A stretch of DNA of 64,000 nucleotides from an uncultured Eubacteriales bacterium (GTDB taxonomy: Bacteria > Bacillota > Clostridia > Oscillospirales > Oscillospiraceae): contig URLO01000001.1 of assembly GCA_900548625.1 (NCBI GenBank), positions 117,207 to 181,206 on the forward strand. The letters run 5' to 3'. A program made the translations under genes and the position numbers. Positions 1 through 27,329 of the stretch are shown here, one piece after another. Below the pieces are notes generated by a model. It was not told where the DNA came from and made no database searches. It saw only the letters and a list, made by a program, of their open reading frames with translations. Within the stretch, counting starts at the first letter, position 1, and each line of letters starts with the position of its first letter.

Positions 1-1209
1 GGTCGTCCTGTGTATCGACGCCGGCCGTCAGAACAAGCACGCCCTCCGGCAGCTCGGCGGGGTATTCCTCCCGGCGCGCCATCAGACTGTCCTCGTCCTC
101 CAGGTCGCCGCGATCCTCCCACAGCTCGCCGAAGCAGGTGTTGTAGACGACCTGCATCTTGCGGGTACTGCCGATGGCGTTCAGATATTTCAGAATGATG
201 GATTCCCAGCTCGCCCACTGGCTGACAAAGGCGTTCAGCCAGAACGAGCGCGTGCCCTGCTCATAGGCGGCGGGGTTGTCCGCCTCCCATCTTGCCGGGG
301 CGCGCTTCATTTCCGCCTCGGTGGAGATGCAGCCGCAGCCGGGGCAGGCATAGCAGACGCTGCGGACCTTGTAGGTCTTTTTCCCCGCGACGATGATCTC
401 GTCGTGCTCAAAGCGGATGTCCGCCCATTGGATCTCGTGATACTCGCCGCAATGAGGGCAGCGGGATTTCCACCGTTCCATCGTGCCTGTCGCGTAGGCG
501 GCTTCAATGGCGCTGGCGTTTTTGACGGTGGGCGTGGACACCTCAGCGCTTTTCGCGTTGTAGAATGTCGTCTGCCGCGCCATCGCCAGATCCCACGGGT
601 CGCCCTCGTTACCGGCGGACAGCGCCCAGCGGTCGCGCTCGTCACCCAGCACATAGCGGATAGGCTTTGACGCCAGAGCGTGGGCCTCGGTGGAGCCGCA
701 CATCGTGAGGATGCCTCCGGGGTAGGTCTTTTGCAGGATGGTATTGCCGCTGTCACGGCTCTTGGGGTCACTGACCTTTTTTCGCAGCGTGGGGCAGTCG
801 CGGATCATCGGCGCGATGCGGAGCTTGGAATACTCCTTTGCGTCAATGGTGGTAGGGTGGACAAACAGAATCGAGCCAGGGTCCTGGTCAATCACATAGC
901 CGATGCAGTTATTGAGAAATTCAGACTTGCCGACCTGGGACGCGGCCACCATGACGATGTGCCGTATCTTTGGGTCGGTCCATGCATTCATCGGCTCGCG
1001 GAGATAGGGGGTGCGCTCGGTGCGCCACGGTCCGGGCTCTGCGGCGCTCTCGGCAGACAGGCGGCGATTCTGCTCCGCCCATTCGGTCACGGTCAGGTCG
1101 TCCGGCGGCTTCATGCCGGCCAAGACTTTCCCGATGACGGCATTCAGCCTCTTTACCCGCTCGCGGGCCTCTTTCTCCTCTATGAGCCGGCGCGTTTCCT
1201 TATCCGTCA
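1..1209 (-). CDS. phage terminase large subunit (GpA-like), 3' end beyond window
   Basis: Minus-strand translation from the ATG at 1209 gives MTDKETRRLIEEKEARERVKRLNAVIGKVLAGMKPPDDLTVTEWAEQNRRLSAESAAEPGPWRTERTPYLREPM..., matching the lambda gpA-family terminase N-terminus. The start overlaps the upstream terS stop. The ORF runs off the window edge and is therefore absent from the ORF track. Confidence 0.8.
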
Positions 1210-1769
1210 TCGGCATCACGCCCGCTGTCAGCTTCCCAGGCCCTCCGCTCCCGGACGCGCTCCTCGTATTTCTTTGGGTCATAGCGGTAATTGGAGAGCT
1301 CCCGCATGGCCTTGTTGACCTCGCGGCGGATAATCTCGGCGGCCTCCGCTGGGGAGTTCGCCGAGGCCACGTCCACGGCCAGGCGGCCGGGCAGGGCCAT
1401 CATCGCCCCGCGAATGGCATAGATCAAGTCGGTAGTCATCGCGGCCACGTCCTCGCTCCGGTGCATGGTACCTTTCAGCTCCTCGGCCTCCAGCTTGGCG
1501 ATGGTGGCCTTGGACGCTTTCATCGTCGTTTCCGCCACGCGGCGGGTCTTCTCCAGCTTCTTGTCCTCCTCGTCCATCGGACCGTCAGATAGGAACTTGA
1601 TATATCGCTGGACGGAATCAGCCAGCCGGAAGAAACCCTTGCGGCAGGTCGGCACGGTGCCGTCCTGCGCCATCTGCTGCACGCGCCGGGCAGACACGCC
1701 CAGCACCGTCGCCAGCTCTGTTGTGCTGACCTCAGTCTCGTCGGTAATCTTCTCGCTTTGTCCAGCCAT
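1200..1769 (-). CDS. phage terminase small subunit (N-terminal HTH)
   Basis: Internal ATG at 1769 (MAGQSEKITDETEVSTTELATVLGVSARRVQQMAQDG...) preceded by AAGGAG. HTH then coiled/charged C-terminus. Sits immediately upstream of and overlapping terL. Confidence 0.65.
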   Translation of the reverse strand: MAGQSEKITDETEVSTTELATVLGVSARRVQQMAQDGTVPTCRKGFFRLADSVQRYIKFLSDGPMDEEDKKLEKTRRVAETTMKASKATIAKLEAEELKGTMHRSEDVAAMTTDLIYAIRGAMMALPGRLAVDVASANSPAEAAEIIRREVNKAMRELSNYRYDPKKYEERVRERRAWEADSGRDADDG

Positions 1770-2219
1770 ATAGCAAACTCCTTTCCGTGGCGATGGAGCG
1801 GGACTCACCAGAATTGCACTGGAGCACCGCCCAGAGGCGGCGAGACCATTATCCCGCGCTGTGGTCTTATCTTCATAGGAGGCCTTTATCGAAACTCTCC
1901 CCACATTCTCGCGGAGAAGAGCGGATAAAGCAGAGGGAATTACGGCAGATACCGCCGCAGGTGCCTCGATTGGCACCAAAAGCATCGGCTGGTGCGTAAC
2001 GAAATGCCTGATTTTTGCCTTGGTAACTACGCTTTTTTCGGGGTCGGCGAGCCCGCGGCGTGTGGGGCGGGGGTCGTCACAGTACCTTTTGCCGTCGTCG
2101 CCTGTTGCAATGCATTTCCCCGCCCTCAGCGCGACGATGCCGAGAGGGGGAGGGAGCAACACAGCCAGACGCAGATACGCCGCTCTCGTGCGATGTATGC
2201 GCCTGGCTGTGGTATTGTG

Positions 2220-2744
2220 TTATAACTTCGTCAGCAATTCCGCATGGCTATACCCCTTAACGCCCTTGGTCATCATGCCGAGGAAGTCATCACGCGAGAA
2301 ATCAGAGAGCCGGAATACTTCTTCAGGTTTCATTCCGAGCTGTTTGCCGATCTCCTGAACGGACTTGCCCTCGTCCAGCAGCCGCTTTACGATGGCTTTC
2401 ATCGGCTCAAGCAGATGTGTACCACGAGCACGGTTGTGTGTGACGGTGCCGTAAATATCCTCGGTCGCGTCATCATGCCGCACGATCACCACCGGCACCT
2501 TGCCTTTGAGCATGGTGTGCAGCGGCTCCTCTCCGGCCACGGTCCAGCGGTGAAAGCCGTCGATGATGGTGTAGTCGGGACGCACGACGATGGGAAGCGT
2601 CCAGCCATTGGTCATGATCGATTGCACCAGCAGTTTCAGATTTTCACGGTTGACCTTGTTGGGGTTGTAGTCATTGGGCTTGAGCTGCTCCCGGTCTACC
2701 CATTGCAGGGAGGATAACGGGGCGAACAGATCCGCGTCAGCCAT
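2220..2744 (-). CDS. ParB-like nuclease domain protein (IbrB-like)
   Basis: ParB N-terminal/Srx fold motifs (LQWVDREQLKPNDYNPNKV...IIDGFHRW). ATG at 2744 with GGGAGGTG RBS. Paired with the upstream PAPS-reductase-like gene. Confidence 0.65.
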   Translation of the reverse strand: MADADLFAPLSSLQWVDREQLKPNDYNPNKVNRENLKLLVQSIMTNGWTLPIVVRPDYTIIDGFHRWTVAGEEPLHTMLKGKVPVVIVRHDDATEDIYGTVTHNRARGTHLLEPMKAIVKRLLDEGKSVQEIGKQLGMKPEEVFRLSDFSRDDFLGMMTKGVKGYSHAELLTKL

Positions 2745-3891
2745 TTGCCTCACCTCCCTTCCGGAAGCGCTTGGCGTAATCGGCGTAGGCGCAGGATATG
2801 TCCTGATAGATGGCGCGCAGGGTGCGGAGCTTGGGATCTCCAGCAGTCAGACCGCCGTACATTTTCTTGTAGTCGCGCGGCCGCGCCATTCCGTCCATCT
2901 GAATGAACATCTTGCGGTACTGCTTGGCGATCTTGCGCTTATGCTCCGTATTGAAGAAGTCTCCCGGGCGGACGAACAGCATCTCCTTCAGGAGCGCACG
3001 GTAGTCCTTGGTGTCCTCGCCCTCCAGCTCCCGGCGCTTCCTTGTGGTGCGGTGGAACATTTCGCTGTCCCAGTACAGCATGGCAAGGTAGGCATTCGGC
3101 TCGCGCCGAAGGACGCGCTCCATGAGAGATGGGTCATATTCGCCCAGGTGTACCAGCACGGGTACGGTATCAACGGAGAAGAACTGCGACACGCGCAGCT
3201 GATTCCGATTGACGCCGACCTGATACATCTGCAGGTAGACCTCGGGGACTTCGATGCGCTGGTCTCGCAGGTACAGCCAGACGTCCGCCGTCTTCCAGTC
3301 GTAGATGGGATAGATGGTGTTCGTGCCGGTGATGCCCTTTGCGCCCATATTCAGTGCCGCCATGTATTGGAGCCGCTGAATGGACTCTGCCGCGCGGACG
3401 CCGGTGATCATGATGCCGTCCATCGTCACGCGAGGCAGGAAGGATTGATAGTTGTCGATCCTTGGCCGGAGCTGCGGGTGATTGCGGATGGCAAAGGGCG
3501 GCGGCTGCCGCACCCAAGCATCGCGCTTGCGTCGATCCCAGCAGACGAAGGTTTCATCGCTGGACAGCTCATTGAGACAGCTGAAATGCTTGACCTCGAT
3601 ACACCACCATTGAAACTTGGCACCGGCAAGCAGGAACTTCTTCCGCCACGCCTTGGTCGTTGCTTCAATGGAATCGAAGATTGCCTCCTCGTCCACGAAA
3701 AGGACGGTCAACTGCGAGGGATTGATCTCTCCAGCCTGGATCAGCTTATAGGTCAGGTCGGCAAGGACGATGCTGTCCTTGCCGCCGGAAAACGAGAGGT
3801 ATACGGGGACGCCGTTGGAAAATACGTTCTTGATCCGCTGGCGCGCCGCAGTCACAACGTCGATGTCTGAGCTGATGCGCTTTACAGCCAT
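2737..3891 (-). CDS. phosphoadenosine phosphosulfate (PAPS) reductase family protein (IbrA/DndC-like PP-loop ATPase)
   Basis: PP-loop motif SFSGGKDS near the N-terminus; 384 aa. Overlaps both flanking genes (translational coupling). Confidence 0.7.
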   Translation of the reverse strand: MAVKRISSDIDVVTAARQRIKNVFSNGVPVYLSFSGGKDSIVLADLTYKLIQAGEINPSQLTVLFVDEEAIFDSIEATTKAWRKKFLLAGAKFQWWCIEVKHFSCLNELSSDETFVCWDRRKRDAWVRQPPPFAIRNHPQLRPRIDNYQSFLPRVTMDGIMITGVRAAESIQRLQYMAALNMGAKGITGTNTIYPIYDWKTADVWLYLRDQRIEVPEVYLQMYQVGVNRNQLRVSQFFSVDTVPVLVHLGEYDPSLMERVLRREPNAYLAMLYWDSEMFHRTTRKRRELEGEDTKDYRALLKEMLFVRPGDFFNTEHKRKIAKQYRKMFIQMDGMARPRDYKKMYGGLTAGDPKLRTLRAIYQDISCAYADYAKRFRKGGEANG

Positions 3892-4487
3892 ATCCGCTCA
3901 CCACATTTCGGGCAGAGGATAAACCTCTTAGCGGGCTCGGTGGAAGACGCCGTGCCGCTCTGTGCGGGTGCGACTTCCTCAGCCTGCGCCGCAGCAGCTT
4001 CTTCCCGGGCGGCGTATTTCTCGCGCGTCTCGGTGATGGCCGCAGCCTGCTCCGGCTCAATGGTGCCGTACTCAAGCAGGGCGTCGCTGGCTTCGTCAGC
4101 CTCCATCACCATCGCACGGAGAAGATCCTCTTCGTAGCCGGGAATGTCCAGGTCGTCTTTCAGCTCAAGGATAAAAGCGTCCAGCGCGGCCAGATCGTCA
4201 ACGCCCAGGTCAAAGACGCGGTTATCAGCCAGCATGAGCTTTTTCTTCTCCGCCTCAGTCAGTCCAGACACGACATAGCAGTCCGCCTCTGTGCGGCCGA
4301 GGGACAGCAGCGTTTCATACAAGCCGTTGCCGGCGAGAATAACGCCGTCCTCGTCGACCACGATGGGGCGGATCTGGCCGAACATTTCGACAGAGCGTCG
4401 GAACTCCTTCAGCTGCTTGTCGGTGTGCATTCGGACATTCCGATCCGGTCGCCGCAGCTCGGTCAGAGGCTTCTTTATGACCTTCAT
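3882..4487 (-). CDS. ParB-like nuclease domain protein with C-terminal zinc ribbon
   Basis: KKPLTELRRPDRNVRMHTDKQLKEFRRSVEMFGQIRPIVVDEDGVILAGNGLYE (ParB/Srx N-domain); C-terminal CPKCGERIW; acidic middle. Confidence 0.6.
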   Translation of the reverse strand: MKVIKKPLTELRRPDRNVRMHTDKQLKEFRRSVEMFGQIRPIVVDEDGVILAGNGLYETLLSLGRTEADCYVVSGLTEAEKKKLMLADNRVFDLGVDDLAALDAFILELKDDLDIPGYEEDLLRAMVMEADEASDALLEYGTIEPEQAAAITETREKYAAREEAAAAQAEEVAPAQSGTASSTEPAKRFILCPKCGERIWL

Positions 4488-5266
4488 GCCTGCACCCCCT
4501 TCAAAAAGGCGCGAGCACTGTCGATCTTTTCAGCTGCCGCAAGGACGATGCCGGGGTCGATATCGTAGACCTCACGCCAGCCGTTCTCGATGCCGCCCGT
4601 CCATTGGCGGGCGGGCCACGGGTGAGTGCCGCACAGATATCCGTTCTTCCAGCCGTAGATCGGCGGAAGCGGGAGCTGATGGTAGTGAATATAGGCAAGG
4701 ATGTGCTCATGCTTCCACGCAGCGAGCGGGCTGAATCGCGTAACACCTTTGCCATCGGTATAGATATTGCTGTTGCGACCGACATAATTGCCGTCCGCAC
4801 GGCGGCGGCCGAGAATGATGACGTCCAGCTCGTGCGCCTTGAAGTATTCACGCTGCGCTCGGTGCTGCACGATAGAAAACCATCGTCCGGCCGCGGCGGA
4901 GTCCTTGGGGAAAAGCATCTCTTGATGCTTCACCAGCCAGTCGATATCCTGATGCGTGTTGATGACTTCGCAGCCTGCCGGCTTATGCTTCTCGATCCAT
5001 GCGGCAAAGGCGGGGTATTCCAGGTCGCACACGCCGATCATGCTATCGGTGACGCCGGCCGCTTCACAGAGTTTGCCAAGGACAATGCTGTCCTTACCAG
5101 CGCTCCATGCGTAGGCAGCACACTTCCCAGCCGTCACGGCCTTGATGTCCGCCACGGTCGCGGCAGTAAGTTCGTCCAGCTCTGCGCGGGAAACGGCTTC
5201 TTCGATAGTTGCAACGGCTTCCAGCCATGCACTGTTGTCGATCCTCTGCTTCCTTCCGAGGCTCAT
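4484..5266 (-). CDS. PAPS reductase family protein (second copy)
   Basis: SAGKDS PP-loop motif. Start chosen at the internal ATG 5266 (MSLGRKQRID...), which forms an ATGA overlap with the upstream symporter stop. The 5' extension in the track looks non-coding. Confidence 0.65.
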   Translation of the reverse strand: MSLGRKQRIDNSAWLEAVATIEEAVSRAELDELTAATVADIKAVTAGKCAAYAWSAGKDSIVLGKLCEAAGVTDSMIGVCDLEYPAFAAWIEKHKPAGCEVINTHQDIDWLVKHQEMLFPKDSAAAGRWFSIVQHRAQREYFKAHELDVIILGRRRADGNYVGRNSNIYTDGKGVTRFSPLAAWKHEHILAYIHYHQLPLPPIYGWKNGYLCGTHPWPARQWTGGIENGWREVYDIDPGIVLAAAEKIDSARAFLKGVQA

Positions 5267-6645
5267 GCTCTCACCGCCTTTCTCGAGGCGATAACAGCGA
5301 CAAGACCGCTGGACAGGACGGTCGTCAGACTGCCTGCCGCTTTCACAGCCGGAATGCCGGCGAGATTGCCGTAGGCGAAGATCGGAAGCCCGACACACAG
5401 CGCGGTCAGCACACCGGCAAAAACGCCCTTGCCCGTCAGTTTCTTACCGAGCAGTGTCATGACCGTCGGCAGCAGCGTCGAAGCGCGGAGCGTTCCGTAG
5501 AACAGGAACAGGTATGTCACCGTCAGGCCGGGAATGTTGGCGATGGCGATAGCCACGATCAGCAGGCAAAGCATGGTGCGGCGCGAAGTCTGCACCGTGT
5601 CCTTCCCAATGCCGAGCCAGTCTGTCGTGAGCGACGCTGCCGCGCAAAGGTTGCTATCCACCGTGGAGAGCAGGCCGGAGATAATCATAAACAAGAACGG
5701 GACCAGCACCCATGTCGGAAGCAGCGAGGAAACGAATTCAAAGTTGACCATGCCGGTGTTGCTGGCCGCAAAGCCGGAGCCTGCGGCAAGGAAGCCCACC
5801 GTTCCCATGCAGATCGGAACGAGCGCAAACAAAAGCGCACCGGCAAAAAACGATCTGCCGATGCGGTCGCGCCTGATTGCGAAAGCTCGTTGCCAGAAGC
5901 ACTGATCCCCGAACGGGCCGGAGATCAGACCGACAGCCATCGGCAGACCATAGCCCAGCAGGACCTCAATGCCCGTGGAGGAGGTGAGCGAAGTATATTC
6001 TCCGGAGACAGCACCGAGCCCTGCCCGTACCGTGTCAAAGCCGCCGGTCATGCGAAGGCTCAGAACGACCAGCAGAGCGCCACCCATGAGAATAATGCCC
6101 AGCTGGACGACATCGGTGATGATGGAGGCTTTCAGCCCGGAGAAGCGGGAGTAGGAATATGCGATAGCTGCCAGGGCGAGCGTCATGCTCCAGAATGGCA
6201 GCCCCGTAATGAGGGCCAGCGTCTTTCCCCCGGCGAGCAGCTGCACCGCCGTTGAAAGAACGGCCAGCGCGCCGAGCTGGAAGGAGTAGACGCCCTTGAC
6301 CTTGCCGGAGTGATAGCGCTCCGCCATGTAGCCGGTCAAGGTGATGCCCTCCGGGTACTGCGCCCGGATCCTTTTTGCAAAGGGGATAAACAGGATCAGG
6401 CACAGCACATTCGGTACCGTAAACCAGAACATCCCCGGGATGCCGCGCGTATAGGCCATCTCCGAGGAAGTGAACAGTGAGGGAGCCCAAATCCAAGTGG
6501 CGGCGATGCTCATGGCGGCAATCACCGAGCCGATGCGCCGGTCCGCCACATGGAAGCCCTCTGCGTCGGTCGTCTTTCGGGTGAACATCAGCGTGACGCC
6601 GATCATCAGCACCGCATAGACGGCCAGAATGACAATTCCGAACAT
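5263..6645 (-). CDS. sodium:solute symporter family (SSF) transporter
   Basis: 460 aa with ~13 predicted TM helices and an SSF-like glycine/proline-rich helix pattern; AAAGGAG RBS; stop overlaps the next gene start (ATGA). Confidence 0.75.
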   Translation of the reverse strand: MFGIVILAVYAVLMIGVTLMFTRKTTDAEGFHVADRRIGSVIAAMSIAATWIWAPSLFTSSEMAYTRGIPGMFWFTVPNVLCLILFIPFAKRIRAQYPEGITLTGYMAERYHSGKVKGVYSFQLGALAVLSTAVQLLAGGKTLALITGLPFWSMTLALAAIAYSYSRFSGLKASIITDVVQLGIILMGGALLVVLSLRMTGGFDTVRAGLGAVSGEYTSLTSSTGIEVLLGYGLPMAVGLISGPFGDQCFWQRAFAIRRDRIGRSFFAGALLFALVPICMGTVGFLAAGSGFAASNTGMVNFEFVSSLLPTWVLVPFLFMIISGLLSTVDSNLCAAASLTTDWLGIGKDTVQTSRRTMLCLLIVAIAIANIPGLTVTYLFLFYGTLRASTLLPTVMTLLGKKLTGKGVFAGVLTALCVGLPIFAYGNLAGIPAVKAAGSLTTVLSSGLVAVIASRKAVRA

Positions 6646-6875
6646 TTTGGAAATCTCCTTTTATGATGTCACCGCTGCCCTCTGCTGGCGAACATCGGAC
6701 CCGGCGCATGACCGGCGCGCAAGGAGTAACGCGCAGGCCTCAACCTCCTTCCCAAACGAATGACGGCCACCCCGCGAGGGATGGCCGCCTGGCTTATGTA
6801 GGATTTTACGAGTCTAATCCTAATACATGGTGCGGGGAATATCAAGAAACGAGTTGCAACAGCGAAGAACAGCTT

Positions 6876-7253
6876 TTAACTACCGAGGTAGCGGTAACAC
6901 ACCATCTTTACCGAATCCTCCGAATTGCGGCCTCCTATGACCGCTGCGACCTCTTTCCATGCGAGCCCTCTCAGGAAGCGCAGCCGGAAGATCAGGCGCG
7001 TCTGGTCATCGTCGATGCCTTGAATGAACGGCATGATCTGCCCCTCGCTGGCCTTGACCTCTTCCTCCAGAAAGCCGACACGCGCATCCATATCCACGAT
7101 CTCAGCTGCGAGGTCGCCGACCTTATCCTTTATGCCGGGAGTATGCGGCATACCTGTGAGGGCAGCCGCGCCGGGGCAAGCCGCGTCACGCAAGGACTGT
7201 AGCATCTCCCTTGCCCTTGCCAGTTTCTCTATCAGCTCAAAATGCTGATTCAA
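6876..7253 (-). CDS. phage late-gene transcriptional regulator, sigma-70 region-4-like (ArpU/DUF1492-type)
   Basis: 125 aa with C-terminal HTH (RLIFRLRFLRGLAWKEVAAVIG). Position and size are typical of Firmicutes phage regulators upstream of packaging genes. Confidence 0.45.
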   Translation of the reverse strand: MNQHFELIEKLARAREMLQSLRDAACPGAAALTGMPHTPGIKDKVGDLAAEIVDMDARVGFLEEEVKASEGQIMPFIQGIDDDQTRLIFRLRFLRGLAWKEVAAVIGGRNSEDSVKMVCYRYLGS

Positions 7254-7290
7254 TTCCGAAAGCGTCGTAATAGCTCACCCCAATCTGTTC

Positions 7291-7479
7291 TTACTTCCTC
7301 TTGCCACCCTGTCGGCTGACAGTCTCTCCAATCTGCATTTGCCGGTATGTTGGCTGCACTACCTCTACCGACACCACACGGGTATCTCCGTATCGCTCCA
7401 AATCCTGAGCGATCTGCTCCTTTATGCCAATGGCCTGCCCCGCCGGGGCGTTCACATGAACGGTGATGACGAGCATCAT
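7291..7479 (-). CDS. hypothetical small phage protein
   Basis: 62-aa ORF packed between flanking genes with overlapping stops. Confidence 0.3.
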   Translation of the reverse strand: MMLVITVHVNAPAGQAIGIKEQIAQDLERYGDTRVVSVEVVQPTYRQMQIGETVSRQGGKRK

Positions 7480-8177
7480 CGCACCGTCTGATAGGCGCGA
7501 GCTTTCTTGTTATAGGCCAGATCGACCGGCGCGCCGCAGGAAAGGCAGCTGTAGGTGAAGACGTCCTCCTCGAAATTCGTCCGGTATTTGAAGTGCTTTC
7601 CGCACTTGCAGCGGATGTGCGCCGACGTGAGATCGTGCAGCGGCGTCTCTCCGTTGCAGGTTGCGCACCGATAGGACGAGATAGGCTGTTTTGCACAAAA
7701 GCCGCGCAGCTCGCCGCATTGTGCGCACCGAATAAGCAGAAATCCCTTGTATGTCTTCGGCGTGGTCTCCTCGGCTTCCGCTCTATCAGGGATAGCCCAG
7801 GCCTCTTTCGGCCCGAACATAGTCTCCGCACGGCTGGGCTTTGCACGAAGCAAAGTCGGCTCTGCCTTGTGTATCTCCGGCAGGGAGGCCTTCGTTGCAG
7901 CGCCGCGCCACACAGGGCGGCAGTCTATGCCGTTTCCGAGACGGCAATGCCATCTGTTCGCGCCGCTGAACTCCTCTTTCTCTCCGTGCTCACAATATTC
8001 GCAGTTGCCGTTCAGCCACAGCAGGGCGGCAATATCGGTCGCGGCGGCGTTGATTGCCTCCTCCGCTCCTGCGAACTCCTGCACCAAGTCAAAAAGGCGG
8101 CTGTAATCGTCATACTGAATACGCCCGTTCTCATTCAGCTCATTGATAAAATCGAGCAGGTTTTCAAATCGTTCCAT
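7476..8177 (-). CDS. cysteine-rich zinc-finger protein, hypothetical
   Basis: Multiple CxxC pairs (CEYCEH, CAQCGE, CATCNG, CKCGKH, CLSCGA); 233 aa. Confidence 0.4.
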   Translation of the reverse strand: MERFENLLDFINELNENGRIQYDDYSRLFDLVQEFAGAEEAINAAATDIAALLWLNGNCEYCEHGEKEEFSGANRWHCRLGNGIDCRPVWRGAATKASLPEIHKAEPTLLRAKPSRAETMFGPKEAWAIPDRAEAEETTPKTYKGFLLIRCAQCGELRGFCAKQPISSYRCATCNGETPLHDLTSAHIRCKCGKHFKYRTNFEEDVFTYSCLSCGAPVDLAYNKKARAYQTVR

Positions 8178-8189
8178 AGAAGCTCCTTT

Positions 8190-8594
8190 TCATTCCATCA
8201 CCACGCAACCACAGACTGTACATTGACCGTGAAAGTGTCCGTTGCTGCGCGCCCTTGCCCCGACCATCGTGCTCTTTCCTCCGCAGGAGGGGCAGTCCAT
8301 GCGAACTTCCTCCGGCGGCTTGCTCCATTCCTCCGTAAGCGCGTCGGGCAGAAACCTTTGACCGCAGAAGACACACCGCTCCAAGCTGTACGGCATATTC
8401 CCGCAGGAGGGGCATTCGGGATATCTGCCGCTCCAATAATCCTCAGCCCAGCGAATATGTACCGGCTCAGCCTTGCCGTTTTCCTTATCATCGGCGGCGG
8501 GCTGGTGTTCGCAGGTATCGCAGTAAAACTCCTTCTTGCAGACCAAGCCCTTATCCCAATGGCAGTACATAGTGAGATCTCCGGTATCAATCAT
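8190..8594 (-). CDS. cysteine-rich zinc-ribbon protein, hypothetical
   Basis: Start taken at internal M (MIDTGDLTMYCHWDK...). Has CxxC x4 (CDTCEH, CPSCGN, CVFCGQ, CPSCGG, CTVCGC). Confidence 0.35.
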   Translation of the reverse strand: MIDTGDLTMYCHWDKGLVCKKEFYCDTCEHQPAADDKENGKAEPVHIRWAEDYWSGRYPECPSCGNMPYSLERCVFCGQRFLPDALTEEWSKPPEEVRMDCPSCGGKSTMVGARARSNGHFHGQCTVCGCVVME

Positions 8595-9006
8595 TTCTGT
8601 CGTCCTCCTTCGGCGGCGCAGGCAGCGGCATCCAATAGACAACTGCAACATCGCTTCTATCTCCGATACCGACATGGACGCTCCATTCCGCCCTTTCGGG
8701 AGCGCACCAGCCCATATAGACGCCCCATCTTTCGTGCCAATACGCGACAACGAGGACATTGCTACGATCTTCCGGTAACCTCTCTTTTACAGATACCCAT
8801 TTTGGCATCCGTTTTGTCGCAGCATTCAGCTTCAATTCGAGCCGGCCGGAATAGCGCTTGCTATCCTCGAACATCATCCCCATCTTTACGATTTCGTCCG
8901 GCATCAACTCTGTTGCTTCGTAGGAGGCAAGCCGCGCCAGTGCAACCTCGTACCCACGGCGGCAGTAAAGCCGCCCATCCTCGTCATACCATGTCAGCTT
9001 ATCCAT
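8587..9006 (-). CDS. DUF551 domain phage protein
   Basis: Motif KWVSVKERLPE...VLVV...W is the hallmark of DUF551. ATG at 9006 with GGGAGG RBS. Confidence 0.5.
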   Translation of the reverse strand: MDKLTWYDEDGRLYCRRGYEVALARLASYEATELMPDEIVKMGMMFEDSKRYSGRLELKLNAATKRMPKWVSVKERLPEDRSNVLVVAYWHERWGVYMGWCAPERAEWSVHVGIGDRSDVAVVYWMPLPAPPKEDDRND

Positions 9007-9268
9007 TGTGTTCCTCCCTCGACTTGAAGCTGCCTGCCGCCCGGCAGCTCCCCCAGTGGGGAGCGAAGCCGGTGCCGGTGGCCTTGTGCGGATCTTCGGT
9101 ATACTCACAGGAGATAACCTCGCCGTTCGGCGTCACGATCTTTTTACTGCCGGAACGGGGCTTTTCGATGTAATAGCGCGGGGTGGCGTCACACGGCATA
9201 GACTTCCCGCCGGGTGTTCTGATCCAGACGATAGCCGCGCCGCAGCCTTTGCAGGTAGACGCTCTCAT
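8999..9268 (-). CDS. small zinc-ribbon protein, hypothetical
   Basis: 89 aa; CKGCGA...C...C pattern. Confidence 0.3.
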   Translation of the reverse strand: MRASTCKGCGAAIVWIRTPGGKSMPCDATPRYYIEKPRSGSKKIVTPNGEVISCEYTEDPHKATGTGFAPHWGSCRAAGSFKSREEHNG

Positions 9269-10638
9269 TCGTCGGTCACCTCCCCGAAAAGCTCATGTGT
9301 TCCGTCCTGGAGAGCCTTTTCATCGTCGGACATCTCGTAGCCCAGCTTGACGAGCAACGCATAGATGCGGTCCAGCTTCTCGTTTTCCTCATGCTTCATG
9401 GTGTAGCTGTTCCAGTAGCTGCGGAAATAGCCCTCGGACTTTCCGTCACCCAGGCGCGCATAGATCATTCGCAGGAGTGCCTTTTCGGGCGTCTTGCCGA
9501 TCGCGTCGGTCACGGCCTGGAGCGTAAATGCGGCATCGTCCTCGCCGTCCTCGTCATCTTCGGCAAGGGTCTCGGCGCCAGTAGCCTGCGCGATCTCCTC
9601 TTCGGTGAGCCAACCGGTATCGTCCCAGTATTCGGCGTAGGCCCACAGCGCCACGATGTCCGCAAGGCGCTTTTTGATGGCGGCTGTGGAAACGGTAGCC
9701 ACGAAGTCGGCGCGAAGCTCGTAGGCGCGGGCGGTTGCTTCGGACAGCGCCTTTTCTGCGGCGTCCTTTCGCTCCTGCTTCAGCTGCTCCTCGCGCTCTT
9801 TCGCTTCTTCCTCCGGGGTAAGGGCGGTAGGCTCATCCTTGACCATCAGCACAATATAACCCCATGTTTCGACGAAGAAGAAATACTCAATGGTATCGGC
9901 ATCCTCCGGGCGATCCACTTTGACTTCGCCGTTAGTATAGAAGCTATTGACTCTCTTATATCCGGTCTTGTCGGTGATCTGCGTCGCAAAGGTACTCAGC
10001 TGCTCTACCCATAGGGCTTTACGCGCTTCTGCGGCTTCATCATTGATGGCCTGTTTCAGCTTGTACTTGAAGTTCTCGGTGCCGATGTAATCAAGCATTT
10101 CGTTCTTGCGCTCCGGGCTTTTCAGCTTGTCCAGCTCCATGTACTCGAAAAGGCTGACGCCGCGCTCCTCGGACTTCTTGAATTTGTCCTTATCCAGCTC
10201 CAGGAGCTTCACACGGCGCCGGACGGTGGTGGCGGAAAAACCGGACTTTTCCGCGATGTCCTCGACGGTATCGCCCATGTCAAGCATCATCTGGAAGCCC
10301 TGCGCCTGCTCATAGACCGTCAGATCGGACCGCTGCATATTCTCCGTGAGCATCGTACTCAGCTGCTCCCGCTCCGACATCTCGACCACGACGCAGGGAA
10401 GCTCCTCCAGACCGGCCAGCTTTGCGGCCGCAAGACGGCGGTGGCCGATGATAACGCGGTAGCTTTCTCCGTCCCACTTCTTTGTGATTTCCCCGATCAG
10501 CGGAACAACGGTGAGGTTTTGGAGTACGCCGTTGACCTTGATGCTCTCAGCCAGCTCGGTCACATCGCCCAGGTCCTTACGGGGGTTATCGGGATGCCTC
10601 CACAGTTTACTGACCGGAATGTACTTGATTTCTGCCAT
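9265..10638 (-). CDS. ParB/Srx-domain protein with ParB-type HTH (partition/nuclease-like)
   Basis: Start at internal ATG 10638 (MAEIKYIPVSKLWRHPDNPRKDLGD... = ParB box) with AAAGGAG RBS. HTH DIAEKSGFSATTVRRRVKLLEL. Long acidic C-terminal extension. Confidence 0.7.
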   Translation of the reverse strand: MAEIKYIPVSKLWRHPDNPRKDLGDVTELAESIKVNGVLQNLTVVPLIGEITKKWDGESYRVIIGHRRLAAAKLAGLEELPCVVVEMSEREQLSTMLTENMQRSDLTVYEQAQGFQMMLDMGDTVEDIAEKSGFSATTVRRRVKLLELDKDKFKKSEERGVSLFEYMELDKLKSPERKNEMLDYIGTENFKYKLKQAINDEAAEARKALWVEQLSTFATQITDKTGYKRVNSFYTNGEVKVDRPEDADTIEYFFFVETWGYIVLMVKDEPTALTPEEEAKEREEQLKQERKDAAEKALSEATARAYELRADFVATVSTAAIKKRLADIVALWAYAEYWDDTGWLTEEEIAQATGAETLAEDDEDGEDDAAFTLQAVTDAIGKTPEKALLRMIYARLGDGKSEGYFRSYWNSYTMKHEENEKLDRIYALLVKLGYEMSDDEKALQDGTHELFGEVTDE

Positions 10639-10688
10639 AAAACGCTCCTTTCTTATGCCGAGCTTTGCCCCTCGGCTGGGACAGTTTA

Positions 10689-11888
10689 TTATTTTCGGCT
10701 CATGCCGTTCACGCGGCACCAGTGCCGCTGGGCCTGCTTCTTCCTCGCGGTGCGGCAGGCCGCGCAGAAGCGGTTTTCCTTGCGCTCGTAGAAGGTACCG
10801 CCGCACCGTGCGCAATACTGAGGCTGAATACGCCGGAATGCTGTGCAGCTGTCGCAATCCGTACACCCTGCGGAGCATCCGCCAATGTCGTCCCAATTCA
10901 TGCACATAAACCTCTGCCAGTAAGGATCGTAGCCGAGATCGTTCATGCGCTTACGAAGGACCGTTGCCAGCGCGGACAGGTCGCGCCTGACCTGATGGCG
11001 GGTGCGGGAGATATAGAAGCCATGACGGACGTCCATTTCCGGCGCACCGTGCCCCCACGCGCCATCACCGAGCATTTCCCGCACCTTGTCGGCGTTCTCG
11101 GTCAGATAATCGTTGTAGACCTTGGATCGGACGCACTTTTCGGAACGGCCGACCGCCTTGCCTATGGCAGCGTAGCTGTCGCCGTGGCGGATGCCGTCTG
11201 CCAGTATTTCAAAATCCTCGCTGGTCCATGTGCCACGCTTGCCAGTCAGTTCCATCGCAACGGGGCGATCCTTGATGCCGAGGTCGCGGCAGCGGCGCGC
11301 AATCGCACCGTGAGAACGATGCATCATCTCGGAAATTTCCGCCCATGAGTACCTGTGCTTGCTGAGCAGCATCTTCAGCCGAGAGTCCTCGTCCTCGCCC
11401 CATGGGTCTTTCCTCTGAATGGCGTATGCCTCGAAGTCTTTCTTGCGCTGCTCGACTACCCACTCAGGCTCCTCACCAAGCGCCAACGGCTCCATCTTGG
11501 AAAAGTCGATGAAGCTGCGGTATCGCTCGGCCCATTCCCAGAATTCATCAATGTAGACCACCCGAAAGCTGCAGCGGTCAACCTTCTTCGTATGGACGGG
11601 GAGGCCCCTGTTTTCCACCCAGCTTTTCATCTTGTAGCCGTAGGAGCTGCTTCCTCCCGTCACTGCCAGCAGGAGTTGATTTAGAGTGACATACTCACCG
11701 GCCATCAGCACCGCGCCCAGGCCAAGACGCTGCGCTCTGACCTTGACGGCATTTGTTGTACGGTTGAGCTTCTTTGCGATGGCCGGGACAGAAATCTGCC
11801 CCCACTTTTCCATCAAATAATCTTCTTCCTCGGGCTTCCATGTCCGACTCCCGAGCGGCGGCTGCTGCCGCATTCCGTTTCCTCCCAT
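10689..11888 (-). CDS. DNA-binding protein with Myb/SANT-like repeats and C-terminal Cys cluster
   Basis: Three W-x-EE/W-x-x-E SANT-like repeats (WKPEEEDYL, WAEISEMM, WTSEDFEIL). C-terminal CxxC x4. The track start at 11891 is a TTG; the ATG is at 11888. Confidence 0.45.
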   Translation of the reverse strand: MGGNGMRQQPPLGSRTWKPEEEDYLMEKWGQISVPAIAKKLNRTTNAVKVRAQRLGLGAVLMAGEYVTLNQLLLAVTGGSSSYGYKMKSWVENRGLPVHTKKVDRCSFRVVYIDEFWEWAERYRSFIDFSKMEPLALGEEPEWVVEQRKKDFEAYAIQRKDPWGEDEDSRLKMLLSKHRYSWAEISEMMHRSHGAIARRCRDLGIKDRPVAMELTGKRGTWTSEDFEILADGIRHGDSYAAIGKAVGRSEKCVRSKVYNDYLTENADKVREMLGDGAWGHGAPEMDVRHGFYISRTRHQVRRDLSALATVLRKRMNDLGYDPYWQRFMCMNWDDIGGCSAGCTDCDSCTAFRRIQPQYCARCGGTFYERKENRFCAACRTARKKQAQRHWCRVNGMSRK

Positions 11889-12745
11889 CAAAATAGAGTG
11901 AGCTGGCCGGTTTTCGTTTCCGCCAGCGGTTGAGACTGTTCCAGCGGCGAGGCAGGCACCGGCGGATCTGCCGGTACCTGCTCGGCCGCGTTCCGAAACA
12001 GAAGATCCATTTGCGCCCCGATGCGGCGGTAATGCCAGACATCTCGGAAATACATCGGCGTGTACCAGACCTGTGGGCCGTCCTTTGGCAGCAGGCCGTG
12101 AGCATCATAACTGGTAGTCGGCCGCACGATGGAGTCATCAATGACAACATAGCCGGGGCAGCCGAGCAAGCTAAGTTGGATGTAACACATACACCCGGCA
12201 AGAAAGTCTATGTCCTGCGCCACGAACAACACCGAAGTCTGATAGTTGATGTGCTGTCTCCGGCACTCGTTGGCAAATGCGATCAGCAGCGCACCAGCGC
12301 CGCAGGCGGGATCGCTCACGGATATCCAACCCTGCTTTTCTATCCGCGCCGCCATATCGGGGCCATAGGTGATTGCGGACATCGCCCTGCAGATATCGTA
12401 CGGAGTGAAGAATTGTCCTTTCCATTCGTTTCCGAGGCCGAGTGCCATAAAAAGCTCACCGAGGAAGTCCTGCTCGGGATCGCGCTCCAATTCGGCTACG
12501 ACCTCAAGCAACATATCTGCAAAGACTTCCAGCTCCTTAGCGGAATACTTCTCTGCGCGACTGCGGTACATTTCTTCCCTGGCCTTGGCCTGCGGGCCTC
12601 CCATCGTGTTGGCGATTGCGATGGCCGACATGATGATGAAGTCCTGCCAGATGTCCCAGCGGGAATACTTCCCACTCAGCCCTTCTATGAAGCGGACGAT
12701 ATTCTTCTGACTTTCCCCTCTGACGTGCCGCAGGGCGTTTCCCAT
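11888..12745 (-). CDS. N6-adenine DNA methylase-like protein (HsdM-type AdoMet motifs, no NPPY/DPPY motif found)
   Basis: Motif X GQFFTP and motif I DPACGAGALL are present. No (D/N/S)PP(Y/F/W) catalytic motif in the remaining ~150 aa. Only 285 aa. Confidence 0.55.
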   Translation of the reverse strand: MGNALRHVRGESQKNIVRFIEGLSGKYSRWDIWQDFIIMSAIAIANTMGGPQAKAREEMYRSRAEKYSAKELEVFADMLLEVVAELERDPEQDFLGELFMALGLGNEWKGQFFTPYDICRAMSAITYGPDMAARIEKQGWISVSDPACGAGALLIAFANECRRQHINYQTSVLFVAQDIDFLAGCMCYIQLSLLGCPGYVVIDDSIVRPTTSYDAHGLLPKDGPQVWYTPMYFRDVWHYRRIGAQMDLLFRNAAEQVPADPPVPASPLEQSQPLAETKTGQLTLF

Positions 12746-22973: not shown

Positions 22974-24542
22974 GTGGCGCTGTTGCCGAGAAAACCTGCA
23001 AAGCACCCGGCGAAGCCGAAGCGGGGCAAGAAGCTGGAAATCGAAGAGCCGGGCGTTCTCTATGGCCGGTACAGCAGCCACAACCAGAAGGACATTTCCG
23101 TAGAGCAGCAGTTCGAAAAGGGCTACGAGCTGGCGGCGGAGTATGGCATCAGGATCATTGACACCTATGCCGACCGCGCCGTTTCTGGCCGCACCGACAA
23201 GCGCCGTGACTTCCAGCGCATGATGACTGACGCTGCAAAAGGGAAGTTCCGCTATGTAATCGCGTGGAAGTCTAACCGCATGGGGCGCAATATGCTGGAG
23301 GCTCTGATCAACGAAGCTCGGCTTCAGGATCTGGGCGTTCGCGTTCTCTATGTGGAGGAGGATTTCGACGATACTGCGGCTGGACGCTTCGCCGCCCGCT
23401 CGATGATGAATGTCAACCAGTTCTATTCCGAGAACATGGCCGAGGACATCAAGCGCGGCCTATATGACAACGCCGCGAATTGCATGGTGGCGAACGGCCA
23501 TCTGCCCTACGGCTATAAAGCGGACGAAACGCTGCACTATGCCATCGACGAGCCGAAGGCTGCGGTTATCCGGGAGATATTCACTCGCGTTTCCTGCGGT
23601 GAGGCTTTCGTTGATATCATGGCCAGCCTGAATGTCCGGGGAATCAAGACCTCGTACGGTCGCCCGTGGGGGCGGTCGAGCTTTCAGAAGATCCTTTCCA
23701 ACGAACGGTATCGCGGCATCTATATCTACGGCGATGTCCGCAAAGAGGGCGGCATCCCGAGGATTATCAGCGACGAGCTTTACTTCAAGGTCCAGGAGGT
23801 GATCACCACGAAGAAGAATCCGCAAGGGCGTCACCGCGTCAATGGTGACTATCTGCTTACCGGCAAGCTGTTCTGCGGGCATTGTAAAAGCCCCATGACT
23901 GGCGTCTCCGGCACCGGACGCTCCGGCAACCTGCATTACTACTACGTCTGCCAGAAGCGTCGAACGGAAAAGACCTGCGATAAAAAGAATGTACGCCGAG
24001 ATGAAATTGAGCTGCAGGTCGCCCAGGCCATCAAAGACTATGCTCTGAAGGACGATGTTATCGAGTGGATCGCCGACAGCACGGTCGCCTACAATGAGCG
24101 CAAGGAAGCCGAGAGCAAGGTCGGCATTTTGGAAGACCAACTCGCCGGCACGGAGCATGGCAAAAAAAACATCATGTCCGCCATCGAGCAGGGCATCATC
24201 ACCGAAACCACGAAAAGCAGGCTGGTCGAGCTGGAGTCTGAGCGTGCTACCATCAAAGCTAATATCGCAGCGGCTCGGGCAGACATCGTGACTGTCAGCC
24301 GCGATGACATTATATCCGGCTTGGAGATGTTCCGAGATGGCGATGTTCACGATAAGAAGTACCAAGCGCGCCTATTTGACACATTCCTGGTCGCGGTGTA
24401 TGCTTATGACGATGATCTGCGGCTGGTGTTCAGCTTCTCCGGCAATAAAAATACAATCCAAATCCCAATAGAATCCGCAGTTAACGCAGTAGAGAATAAC
24501 GAGGCTGAGTGTTCGTTTAAGCTCTGCTCTGCTCCACCATAA
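22974..24542 (+). CDS. large serine recombinase (phage integrase)
   Basis: Resolvase catalytic domain (YGRYSS..., RD...R), recombinase domain, Zn-ribbon (CGHCKS...C...C) and coiled-coil. Lys-rich N-terminal extension. Start is GTG/TTG near 22974-22986. Confidence 0.85.
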   Translation: MALLPRKPAKHPAKPKRGKKLEIEEPGVLYGRYSSHNQKDISVEQQFEKGYELAAEYGIRIIDTYADRAVSGRTDKRRDFQRMMTDAAKGKFRYVIAWKSNRMGRNMLEALINEARLQDLGVRVLYVEEDFDDTAAGRFAARSMMNVNQFYSENMAEDIKRGLYDNAANCMVANGHLPYGYKADETLHYAIDEPKAAVIREIFTRVSCGEAFVDIMASLNVRGIKTSYGRPWGRSSFQKILSNERYRGIYIYGDVRKEGGIPRIISDELYFKVQEVITTKKNPQGRHRVNGDYLLTGKLFCGHCKSPMTGVSGTGRSGNLHYYYVCQKRRTEKTCDKKNVRRDEIELQVAQAIKDYALKDDVIEWIADSTVAYNERKEAESKVGILEDQLAGTEHGKKNIMSAIEQGIITETTKSRLVELESERATIKANIAAARADIVTVSRDDIISGLEMFRDGDVHDKKYQARLFDTFLVAVYAYDDDLRLVFSFSGNKNTIQIPIESAVNAVENNEAECSFKLCSAPP

Positions 24543-25292: not shown

Positions 25293-26318
25293 ATGGCAAA
25301 GTGTGGAGAGAACATTTATAAACGCAAAGACGGAAGATGGGAAGGCCGCTTTATTCGCAGCCGCAGGGAAAATGGTCACGCGATATACGGTTATGTCTAT
25401 GGCCGGAGTTATACAGAATGCAAAGGCAAATTAAAGGAAGCCGCCATAGCGCCGCCTCGTATGATGTGCGGCTGTCGTCTGACGGCGAAAGAGCTTTTTT
25501 CTTCCCTGCTGCGGAAAAAATGCGCGGAGGTCAAACCATCTACCGCCCAGCGCTATCGCTTTTTGATTGAAAAACACATTCTCCCGGAACTGGGGCATCT
25601 CCGGGTCGAACAGCTGACGGCGAAAAAACTCCAAGCCTTCCTCCAACGAAAGCGTGTAAACGGAGGCCTGAAAGGCGGTGGGCTTTCGGTCAAAACCGTC
25701 CGGGACATCGGGACTCTGATAAAATCGGCGCTGAAATACGCACAAGCGGAGTTTTCGATCCCCTGTGATGCAGATGCGCTGCGGCTTCCGTCGCCTGCAC
25801 AACCGGATATTCGCGTTTTTACCGAAGATGAACTGCGGCGTATCGGCGAGCAGGTCACACGCCAGCCGCATTTGATGGAAATCGGCATACTGCTGGCGCT
25901 GAACACCGGTCTTAGAATTGGAGAATTGTGTGCGCTGCAACGGCAAGATGTCGATTTTGCTGCCGGAACCGTCTCTGTCCGCCACACGGCGCAGCGAATC
26001 AATTACGGCGGCAGGACGGAATTGGTCGTTCAAACACCGAAAAGTGCCGCTTCCAACCGCGTCATTCCCATTCCGGCTGGAATGCTGGCGCTGCTGCGGC
26101 AGTATGTATATGCCTTTGCACCGGGCGCGCAGCTGGAAGCCTACCGCACGATCACCCGGCAGTCCGATATGGTGCTGGCCGTCTATGACCCTGCATCGGC
26201 GCGCGGCGACGATACGGACGCGGCGATCCAATATGCGCGGGAGCTGAAGCGCCCCATCCTGAGTATCCACCCGGATACGCTGCGTACTAGCTGCCTGACT
26301 GAATTTGAGTTTATGTAA
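25293..26318 (+). pseudogene. tyrosine recombinase/integrase remnant (N-terminal arm-binding and core-binding regions; catalytic H-x-x-R...Y region absent)
   Basis: N-terminus YKRKDGRWEGRF is AP2-like arm-binding; box I R present (LRIGELCALQRQDVDF). The C-terminal 60 aa do not match HxLRHT...Y; no alternative frame supplies it. Confidence 0.5.
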
Positions 26319-26954: not shown

Positions 26955-27329
26955 ATGAGGAAGAGAATTTTGTCGTTGCTTCTCATACTGGTGATGATCG
27001 TGGGGCTGCTGCCCACCGTCGCGCTGGCGAAAAATGATGACTTTACGGTCACCATTTCCATGGAGGGGCTGACACTCGGACAGGGCTACTACCTGGAGCC
27101 GAGAACATACACATTGGATCAGATCAACAAACTGGTCGAGGGCGAGCCCTGGGCCAGGACCTTTACCGCCGACGATCTGACGGCAGACGTTGTGACGATC
27201 GCGATGCTCAAGGATGCAAATCGCAAGTACACCAATACCGGCACGGTGCAGAGCGACTTCTATCTGTCCCGTGTCAGTGGGATTCCCGCGTACTCCGCTG
27301 CCGCAACAGCATTCCGCAGATCATTTTGA
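26955..27329 (+). CDS. N-terminal fragment of surface protein: signal peptide + first half of DUF4430 (transcobalamin-like B12-binding) domain
   Basis: ATG 26955 with GGAGG RBS; signal peptide MRKRILSLLLILVMIVGLLPTVALA. The domain is cut by a frame change at ~27320. Confidence 0.55.
   Translation: MRKRILSLLLILVMIVGLLPTVALAKNDDFTVTISMEGLTLGQGYYLEPRTYTLDQINKLVEGEPWARTFTADDLTADVVTIAMLKDANRKYTNTGTVQSDFYLSRVSGIPAYSAAATAFRRSF

Follow-up and report, generated by a model that had tools for sequence, protein, structure and literature searches.

How do two genes for PAPS-reductase-like (phosphoadenosine phosphosulfate reductase-like) enzymes come to alternate with two genes for ParB-like proteins beside the terminase genes of a prophage, and what might such genes do there? 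The question is raised by DNA from an uncultured Eubacteriales bacterium (GenBank assembly GCA_900548625.1, contig URLO01000001.1, positions 117,207 to 181,206 of the forward strand). The whole of this stretch, 64,000 nucleotides, is called the window here. The genes belong to a prophage that is a relative of Faecalibacterium phage FP_Taranis, has a host of the Faecalibacterium/Oscillospiraceae type and shares ~70% DNA identity with FP_Taranis across the region from the large terminase subunit (TerL) to ParB-B. Two human faecal virome contigs (MT836198 and MT837417) were 94-96% identical to the window phage, so that it is a genuine phage in circulation rather than a product of assembly. An earlier reading of the sequence alone (the original prediction) took the four genes as an IbrAB-like pair that had been tandemly duplicated and had diverged, with either two specificities of a DNA-modification or packaging-associated activity or a recent duplication under selection as the explanation. 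Analysis of the locus and of its relatives points instead to a conserved five-gene cassette in which the two enzymes are only remotely related.

Gene order and divergence of the two pairs

The four genes were intact and consecutive on the minus strand at 2220-5266, in the predicted order PAPS-reductase-like, ParB-like, PAPS-reductase-like and ParB-like. In reading direction they encode PAPS-B (260 aa, 4484-5266; PF01507 at 8.7e-10, phrog_424 at 1.3e-26), ParB-B (201 aa, 3882-4487; phrog_620 'ParB-like' at 9e-45, below the Pfam cut-off), PAPS-A (384 aa, 2737-3891; PF01507 at 5e-13, phrog_2302 at 1.4e-85) and ParB-A (174 aa, 2220-2744; PF02195 at 6.8e-8, phrog_2159 at 2.3e-70). Both PP-loops were present as described, SAGKDS in PAPS-B and SGGKDS in PAPS-A. 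What had been missed was a fifth coupled gene, which encodes an SSF-family symporter of 460 aa (5263-6645, minus strand; PF00474 at 7e-23, phrog_20720 at 1e-171) and is the first of the cassette. The predicted translational coupling was borne out by overlapping start and stop codons at all three junctions of the four genes, with 4 nt (ATGA) between PAPS-B and ParB-B, 10 nt (ATGGCTGTAA) between ParB-B and PAPS-A, and 8 nt (ATGGCTGA) between PAPS-A and ParB-A. The symporter stop overlaps the PAPS-B start as ATGA, so that overlapping codons run through all five genes, and a purine-rich ribosome-binding site (RBS) precedes each cassette start codon. The start of ParB-A is an ATG preceded by GGGAGGTGAGG; the open reading frame (ORF) listing begins instead at a GTG at 2753. 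A 555-aa protein from an ENA contig (P0393), 100% identical to PAPS-A, carries both PF01507 and PF02195. Since a single-base indel in the 8-nt overlap would fuse the two genes, this apparent PAPS-A/ParB-A fusion call is probably an artefact.

The case for a duplication is that both pairs come from the same two superfamilies in alternating order, and that profile comparison extends the homology of the enzymes past the PP-loop (hhalign, 213 columns, 97.6% probability, E 3.9e-12). The identity over those columns was 18%, and BLASTP of PAPS-A against PAPS-B found 27/76 identities (36%) around the PP-loop only, at an E of 1e-4. The ParB proteins matched each other at an E of 0.017 by BLASTP and over a core of 44 columns, with 28% probability, by hhalign. 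The architectures also differ: PAPS-A has a C-terminal extension and an invariant Cys and PAPS-B neither, while ParB-A has a helix-turn-helix (HTH) and GxxR and ParB-B an acidic tail and a CxxC, with no Arg. The four proteins fall into the four different PHROG families named above. PAPS-A and PAPS-B are therefore best described, from their profiles, as remote superfamily relatives and not duplicates, and near-identical copies created by assembly can be dismissed, the copies being highly diverged. The enzyme gene by itself may have been duplicated long ago.

The distribution of the genes also spoke against a recent or unit-wise duplication. About 280 loci were collected from IMG/VR, GTDB genomes and GenBank phages with PAPS-A, PAPS-B, a 40-sequence PAPS-B alignment and the symporter as anchors, and were classified with family hidden Markov models (HMMs). 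ParB-B occurred without PAPS-B in many lineages and phyla, namely in FP_Taranis, Pioen, three prophage loci (L125-L127), PJN03 (Riemerella-type), LestyG and 10 of 41 viral loci, and does not behave as the partner of PAPS-B. Conversely, PAPS-B was found without a detected ParB-B in L240 and in the divergent loci L199 and L202. PAPS-B and ParB-B stood as the only pair, without PAPS-A and ParB-A, solely in four loci (L176, L194, L278 and L034) that are truncated at that point. Comparison of single and double copies in related prophages showed that the two-enzyme arrangement, which had been called unusual, is the majority state in this lineage, with PAPS-B in 31 of 41 de-duplicated PAPS-A-anchored loci. 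A duplicated pair with two specificities of one activity is accordingly very unlikely.

Conservation of the cassette and its place before the terminase

The order transporter, (PAPS-B), ParB-B, PAPS-A, ParB-A recurred in ~200 loci, in prophages of Clostridia and Bacteroidota. The PAPS-B-anchored set, drawn from GTDB genomes and IMG/VR and scanned along with three SSF-anchored loci that lack PAPS-B, contained 116 loci with the order SSF-PAPSB-ParBB-PAPSA-ParBA and 14 in which a gp35-type transporter replaced the SSF type. The remaining loci were mostly truncated or split; L199 and L202 were divergent, and in L240 neither ParB-B nor PAPS-A was detectable. The PAPS-A-anchored viral set, which is unbiased in this respect, comprised 41 distinct loci that reach far enough upstream. 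Every one had ParB-B and a transporter, 31 had PAPS-B and 10 lacked it. Hosts included Oscillospiraceae, Lachnospiraceae, Clostridioides difficile, Anaerovorax, Sedimentibacter and Bacteroidales (Mediterranea, Bacteroidaceae). The last two genes were swapped in the Bacteroidales-type version, with ParB-A before PAPS-A, so that order varies and content is kept.

Smaller versions of the cassette were found as well. The transporter was present and PAPS-B absent in FP_Taranis, in Pioen and in the SSF loci of Vallitaleaceae and Eubacterium prophages (L125-L127). The trio of ParB-B, PAPS-A and ParB-A occurred without a transporter in phage PJN03, mycobacteriophage LestyG and Bacillus phage M2. In LestyG the trio corresponds to genes 1, 4 and 5, after which comes the terminase; the ParB-A-type gene abuts it with no annotated small subunit (TerS). 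Streptococcus phage CHPC877 has the IbrA/IbrB pair alone, far from its terminase. The distribution is nested, from the trio to the trio with a transporter and on to the trio with a transporter and PAPS-B. A locus in a Pyrinomonadaceae metagenome-assembled genome (MAG) of the Acidobacteria (L199, 6929-11666) carried PAPS-B, a tandem pair of PAPS-A-like genes and one ParB-A-like gene, with no transporter or ParB-B detected, and may represent a truly distinct version of the system.

The symporter scored 81.6 bits against PF00474 (cut-off 22.8) over residues 31-413, a full-length SSF domain, and matched TIGR00813 at 1e-34 with a score of 120, below the cut-off of 184. A transporter gene was present at 143 of the 146 PAPS-B genes with enough upstream sequence. 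The gp35-type membrane protein of FP_Taranis had no Pfam match, yet could be aligned by hhalign to the SSF transporter (E 7.8e-5, 61% probability), of which it is probably a shortened and divergent relative. The alignment tempers the notion that two unrelated transporter families alternate in one slot. Four Bacteroidales-type loci had an extra gene for a beta-rich protein of ~200 aa between the symporter and PAPS-B (L203:6377-6982, L205:2996-3616, L206:6366-6986 and L207:4578-5198), with a signal peptide and ending in ..QF[ND]. Two of these loci were assigned to Bacteroidales and two were binned as Oscillospiraceae and Eubacteriales MAGs. Searches with this protein gave only a marginal Porin_2 match in Pfam (E 0.065) and no PDB sequence match; it may be a putative outer-membrane channel partner of the symporter in diderm hosts, which would fit real uptake.

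The terminase genes adjoin the cassette in the window, although 'immediately upstream' proved to be approximate wording, as a 450-nt spacer intervenes (1770-2219; no separate ORF and no Rfam match). It is followed on the minus strand by terS (1200-1769; phrog_57 at 6.7e-32; RBS-like GGAAAGGAG before the ATG) and by the N-terminal 405 codons of a lambda GpA-like TerL (1-1216), an open frame that runs off the window. Directly after the ParB-A stop, the spacer has a 14-nt inverted repeat (2160-2173/2198-2211) that is 93% complementary. The linear record of phage Pioen stops ~520 bp past its IbrB homologue, and for this reason the spacer probably holds the cos site or genome termini. The TerS reading frame stays open for 131 codons upstream of its ATG.

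Among 129 loci with enough downstream sequence, 123 had an ORF of at least 380 aa starting within 2.5 kb. These ORFs formed seven sequence clusters, the representatives of which were large terminases of at least five families (GpA, Terminase_6, Terminase_3, TerL_ATPase/nuclease and phrog_2/phrog_5902); the loci related to the window had a GpA-type TerL with PF05876/PF20454. With at least five TerL families downstream, the link appears to be to late or packaging timing rather than to one packaging mechanism. The cassette is tied to the head of the packaging operon, which favours an action on DNA just before packaging, or late timing generally.

Candidate functions

Members of the PAPS-B family, which comprised 539 representatives at 50% clustering (E<=1e-3, from 1.84 billion proteins), were all ~260 aa long, and the family is small and distinct. 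An alignment of 40 sequences showed a near-invariant SGGKDS and no conserved Cys; Cys212 ('YLCGTHPWP') had been considered as a CysH-like catalytic Cys and was rejected, the residue being variable across the family. A tblastn search of 50,697 phage records returned one near-identical virome contig only, and so no annotated relative. The AlphaFold2 (AF2) model of PAPS-B had a pLDDT of 95.8. Its best PDB folds were, about equally, PAPS and adenosine phosphosulfate (APS) reductases, TtuA, the ATPPase subunit of GMP synthase, CysD and FAD synthase, at TM scores (normalised to query length) of ~0.37-0.53 and identities of 13-20%. The model suggests a generic PP-loop ATP-pyrophosphatase fold without a close solved relative.

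PAPS-A has a C-terminal helical extension of ~125 aa beyond the PP-loop core. The residues SGGKDS, D67, E69, C97, W118, R128 and GxRxxES..R were invariant across phyla; C97, in the N-terminal core, is the sole invariant Cys and is kept from Firmicutes to Actinobacteria phages. JGI names its homologues 'predicted phosphoadenosine phosphosulfate sulfurtransferase'. By profile searches PAPS-A is IbrA-like, with BrxP (4.7e-13) and DndC (3e-8) as its best matches in the PADLOC defence library, and DUF3440 was not detected (Pfam at E<=1 gave PAPS_reduct plus noise only). Neither enzyme turned out to belong to an unrelated PP-loop family lacking ParB linkage.

ParB-A has a ParB N-terminal domain that retains GxxR (DGFHRW) and an HTH, scored 32.9 bits against PF02195 (cut-off 26.3) and 29.1 against TIGR00180 (cut-off 58.45), and matched Spo0J/ParB structures at E ~2e-3 with the HTH region included. 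It is highly conserved, with a minimum identity of 69% among 58 homologues. ParB-B has a ParB/Srx fold, an acidic linker and tail and a C-terminal CPKCG, and its P-motif is degenerate, with AGNGL in place of GxxR. The GNG and the CPxCG motif were conserved in 67 homologues. ParB-B reached 12.3 bits against Pfam ParB_N, under the cut-off of 26.3, and matched sulfiredoxin and ParB in the PDB at E ~5e-3. It also resembles the N-terminal part of phrog_498 'DNA methyltransferase' (5.5e-27) and PADLOC MTase_II (4.8e-15), and a ParB-B-type domain is found in Bacillus phage M2 in the protein annotated as DNA adenine methyltransferase (236 aa), the gene for which directly precedes the PAPS gene. There was no parA gene within or beside the cassette.

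Among known systems, IbrA/IbrB of E. coli stands closest, and the likeness to IbrAB claimed in the original prediction holds for the downstream pair, PAPS-A and ParB-A. As in IbrA/IbrB, a PAPS_reduct protein lies beside a ParB N-terminal protein, both above their Pfam cut-offs, in adjacent overlapping genes (here by the 8 nt noted above) that often stand next to the terminase. In hmmsearch, the PAPS-A and ParB-A family HMMs matched IbrA (1.6e-33) and IbrB (1.3e-34) of CHPC877 and gp4 (4e-30) and gp5 (2.9e-35) of LestyG, and the FP_Taranis orthologues are annotated as IbrA and IbrB. IbrAB-type pairs are annotated in phages of Streptococcus thermophilus, Flavobacterium, Mycobacterium (cluster B), Arthrobacter and Bacillus. 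The pair studied here differs in sitting within a larger unit with ParB-B, an SSF-type transporter and a second PP-loop enzyme, and E. coli-type IbrA is marked by DUF3440, which PAPS-A does not show.

Further parallels come from DNA-modification and defence systems. BrxP and DndC are DNA phosphorothioation enzymes (PMC12914056), and with DndB and DpdB, too, a ParB-fold protein accompanies an enzyme that modifies DNA (PMC12839542, PMC10164549, bioRxiv 10.1101/2025.10.10.680097). Dnd, Ssp and BREX type 4 combine, as the cassette does, a PP-loop enzyme of the PAPS-reductase fold (DndC, SspD, BrxP), with a canonical PP-loop like the invariant SGGKDS of PAPS-A, and a ParB-fold protein (DndB). The cassette differs in lying in a phage and not in a defence island, in having a transporter and in lacking an Fe-S cysteine set. 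ParB-methyltransferase fusions and DpdB also have a ParB-fold module attached to or beside a DNA-modifying enzyme; there the partner is a methyltransferase or transglycosylase, here a PP-loop ATPase. A 7-deazaguanine (Dpd-like) route was considered and dropped, as no TGT/DpdA or Que genes were present among the window phage genes or in the FP_Taranis annotation at 1-29,198, which covers the early region, the cassette and the head genes.

Taken together, the findings on the cassette tentatively favour a module that is expressed late and modifies DNA by means of an imported precursor, a reading that is plausible but falls somewhat short of being expected. Such a cassette would modify replicated phage DNA just before packaging. 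PAPS-A would be the catalytic ATP-pyrophosphatase, adenylating a DNA position and transferring sulfur or another nucleophile to it, by a chemistry akin to that of DndC/SspD/BrxP and of the PP-loop enzymes that thiolate tRNA. ParB-A, with its NTP-binding GxxR and HTH, and ParB-B, as a methyltransferase-type module, may act as DNA-loading or targeting subunits, in roles parallel to those of DndB, DpdB and the ParB domain of ParB-methyltransferase fusions. The symporter would import a small-molecule precursor. The optional PAPS-B, sited directly after the transporter and without a conserved Cys, might pre-activate or tailor the imported compound. What this model predicts is that the enzymes are ATP-pyrophosphatases, that they act on DNA, that a precursor is imported and that the cassette is expressed late. 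That the cassette performs an undescribed modification of phage DNA, in which a PP-loop enzyme adenylates the backbone or a base of ParB-loaded DNA and adds sulfur or an imported, PAPS-B-activated compound, is possible and rather doubtful.

Several results weigh against modification with an imported precursor. The AF2 model of PAPS-A was poor (pLDDT 66.5), its C-terminal domain could not be interpreted, and its Foldseek matches to LarE, TtuA and TilS, at TM ~0.3, were non-diagnostic. The matches to BrxP and DndC were confined to residues 156-219, a core of ~60 residues, and lay far under the family cut-offs, the TIGR03183 DndC score being 23.5 against a cut-off of 290.4. The P-motif arginine is required for NTP binding in tested ParB-fold proteins (bioRxiv 10.1101/2025.10.10.680097), and ParB-B lacks it. 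No DndD/SspC/BrxC NTPase and no cysteine desulfurase was found in the cassette, among the scanned window phage genes or in the FP_Taranis annotation at 1-29,198; a host desulfurase could substitute for the latter. The nearest solved relatives of the symporter were DUR3, CHT1 and SMCT1, at E 3e-15 or weaker. The trio occurs without a phage transporter in other phyla, which implies that import is not a general feature. As for the IbrAB pair that gave the module its name, the only genetic work on it points to activation of genes and not to modification.

Such activation could mean that the cassette serves as a co-activator of late genes. The cassette stands between terS and a gene for a RinA-like late transcriptional activator (6876-7253, minus strand; phrog_36 at 6.7e-6). 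The FP_Taranis orthologue of this gene is annotated as a RinA-like activator, and many related loci have the gene in the same place. The downstream pair resembles IbrA/IbrB, and ParB-A has an HTH. Regulation of transcription is within the reach of ParB-fold proteins, as illustrated by KorB and by the effect of N15 SopB on late genes. The analysis identified no binding sites. A regulator would, however, need neither two ATP-pyrophosphatases with conserved catalytic motifs nor a dedicated importer, and the activation phenotype of IbrAB could itself be a by-product of DNA modification, so that this role is unlikely. The gene position would also suit a packaging accessory, in which the ParB-fold proteins are site-recognition or nicking factors of the terminase, like the HNH proteins of cos phages, and the other genes supply a cofactor or counter-ion. 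A TerL within 2.5 kb downstream in 123 of 129 loci, the ParB-A-type gene that abuts the terminase in LestyG, and a probable cos site in the spacer after ParB-A are consistent with this, as is the symporter's nearest solved relative, DUR3, of a group that also takes up polyamines. At least five unrelated terminase families, both cos and headful, would be unexpected for a mechanism-specific accessory; the IbrAB pair of CHPC877 is far from the terminase, the window phage has a normal TerS, and no role is left for two PP-loop enzymes. A packaging accessory is therefore quite unlikely.

A role in sulfur assimilation is the reading of such genes in the literature. Kieft et al. listed them as sulfur/cysH auxiliary metabolic genes (AMGs) (bioRxiv 10.1101/2021.01.05.425418), and in prophage phi14 of C. 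clostridioforme LM41 ORFs 40 and 42, assigned to phrog 424 and 2302 and two ORFs apart as in the window cassette, are placed under 'host metabolism' (PMC11318856). On this account both enzymes would be cysH-like PAPS reductases that boost host sulfur assimilation, and the symporter would import a sulfur compound. Both do match Pfam PAPS_reduct (PF01507), a transporter is present, and PAPS/APS reductases, sharing the fold, are the closest solved sequences and structures for PAPS-B. True CysH, however, has a degenerate PP-loop, whereas the canonical, ATP-binding SGGKDS is kept here. PAPS-B has no conserved Cys and PAPS-A no C-terminal ECGLH-type Cys. Scores fell far under every curated CysH/APS-reductase cut-off, at 20.9 against 254.2 (TIGR02057), 20.3 against 165.1 (TIGR00434) and 26.3 against 154 (NF002537) for PAPS-B, and at 21.5 against 154 (NF002537) for PAPS-A. 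Neither enzyme is thus expected to be a sulfate-assimilation CysH, and the genes are tightly linked to two ParB-fold proteins and to terminase genes across phyla; a sulfur AMG is highly improbable. A DNA-modification or packaging-linked role, as the original prediction had suggested, still seems the most plausible class of function.

Neighbouring genes and significance

The interval between the RinA-like gene and the symporter holds a GC-rich 12-bp hairpin, GGCGGCCATCCC-TCGC-GGGGTGGCCGTC (6762-6789, minus strand), which might serve for termination or anti-termination at the cassette's entry; such sites were not above shuffled expectation, and the promoter/terminator scan as a whole gave counts not above those in shuffled sequence. 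An Rfam scan of window positions 1-12000 returned nothing at E<=0.1.

A second conserved neighbourhood, in which ParB again accompanies a DNA-modification-type enzyme, was found at 9265-12745 on the minus strand. Its short N6_Mtase-like protein is encoded at 11888-12745, its Myb/HTH regulator at 10689-11891 and its large ParB_N+HTH_ParB protein at 9265-10632 (ORF to 10905). FP_Taranis shares the N6_Mtase-like gene and the large ParB (gp23 and gp25), and the Vallitaleaceae prophage L125 has the full set of three. The window phage also carries a Sak4 gene and a large serine recombinase; the latter, at 22974-24542, probably marks the prophage end. A tyrosine-integrase-like ORF and a second large serine recombinase nearby (25293-26318, 40099-41865) suggest stacked mobile elements, and a surface protein of 1944 aa with SLH, cadherin-like and Listeria-Bacteroides repeats is encoded between these genes (27326-33160).

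Literature searches on IbrA/IbrB, on PAPS reductase with ParB and on DUF3440/COG3969 turned up neither a mechanistic study of the phage module nor a description of the five-gene unit, its transporter or its nested distribution. The IbrAB-like pair is already known, with its function uncharacterised. ParB and PAPS-reductase pairs are among the commonest unexplained phage genes, and virome surveys routinely class them as AMGs of sulfur metabolism. The dedicated importer, the position in the packaging operon and the missing CysH hallmarks argue against such bookkeeping. In abundant phages of the human gut, a fixed unit of five genes at the start of the packaging operon has the pair as its core. 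FP_Taranis and Pioen were isolated on Faecalibacterium hosts and lack one component relative to the window phage, PAPS-B; with isolated phages that carry the cassette, the function of this common module is experimentally approachable. If the cassette modifies DNA, it would bear on phage-host range, on the evasion of restriction in the gut and on sequencing-based detection of phages. If the modification uses an imported metabolite, it would represent a new class of phage DNA modification with its own uptake machinery, namely the symporter and, in the Bacteroidales-type version, a putative outer-membrane protein, and would give a function to the widespread IbrAB-like modules.

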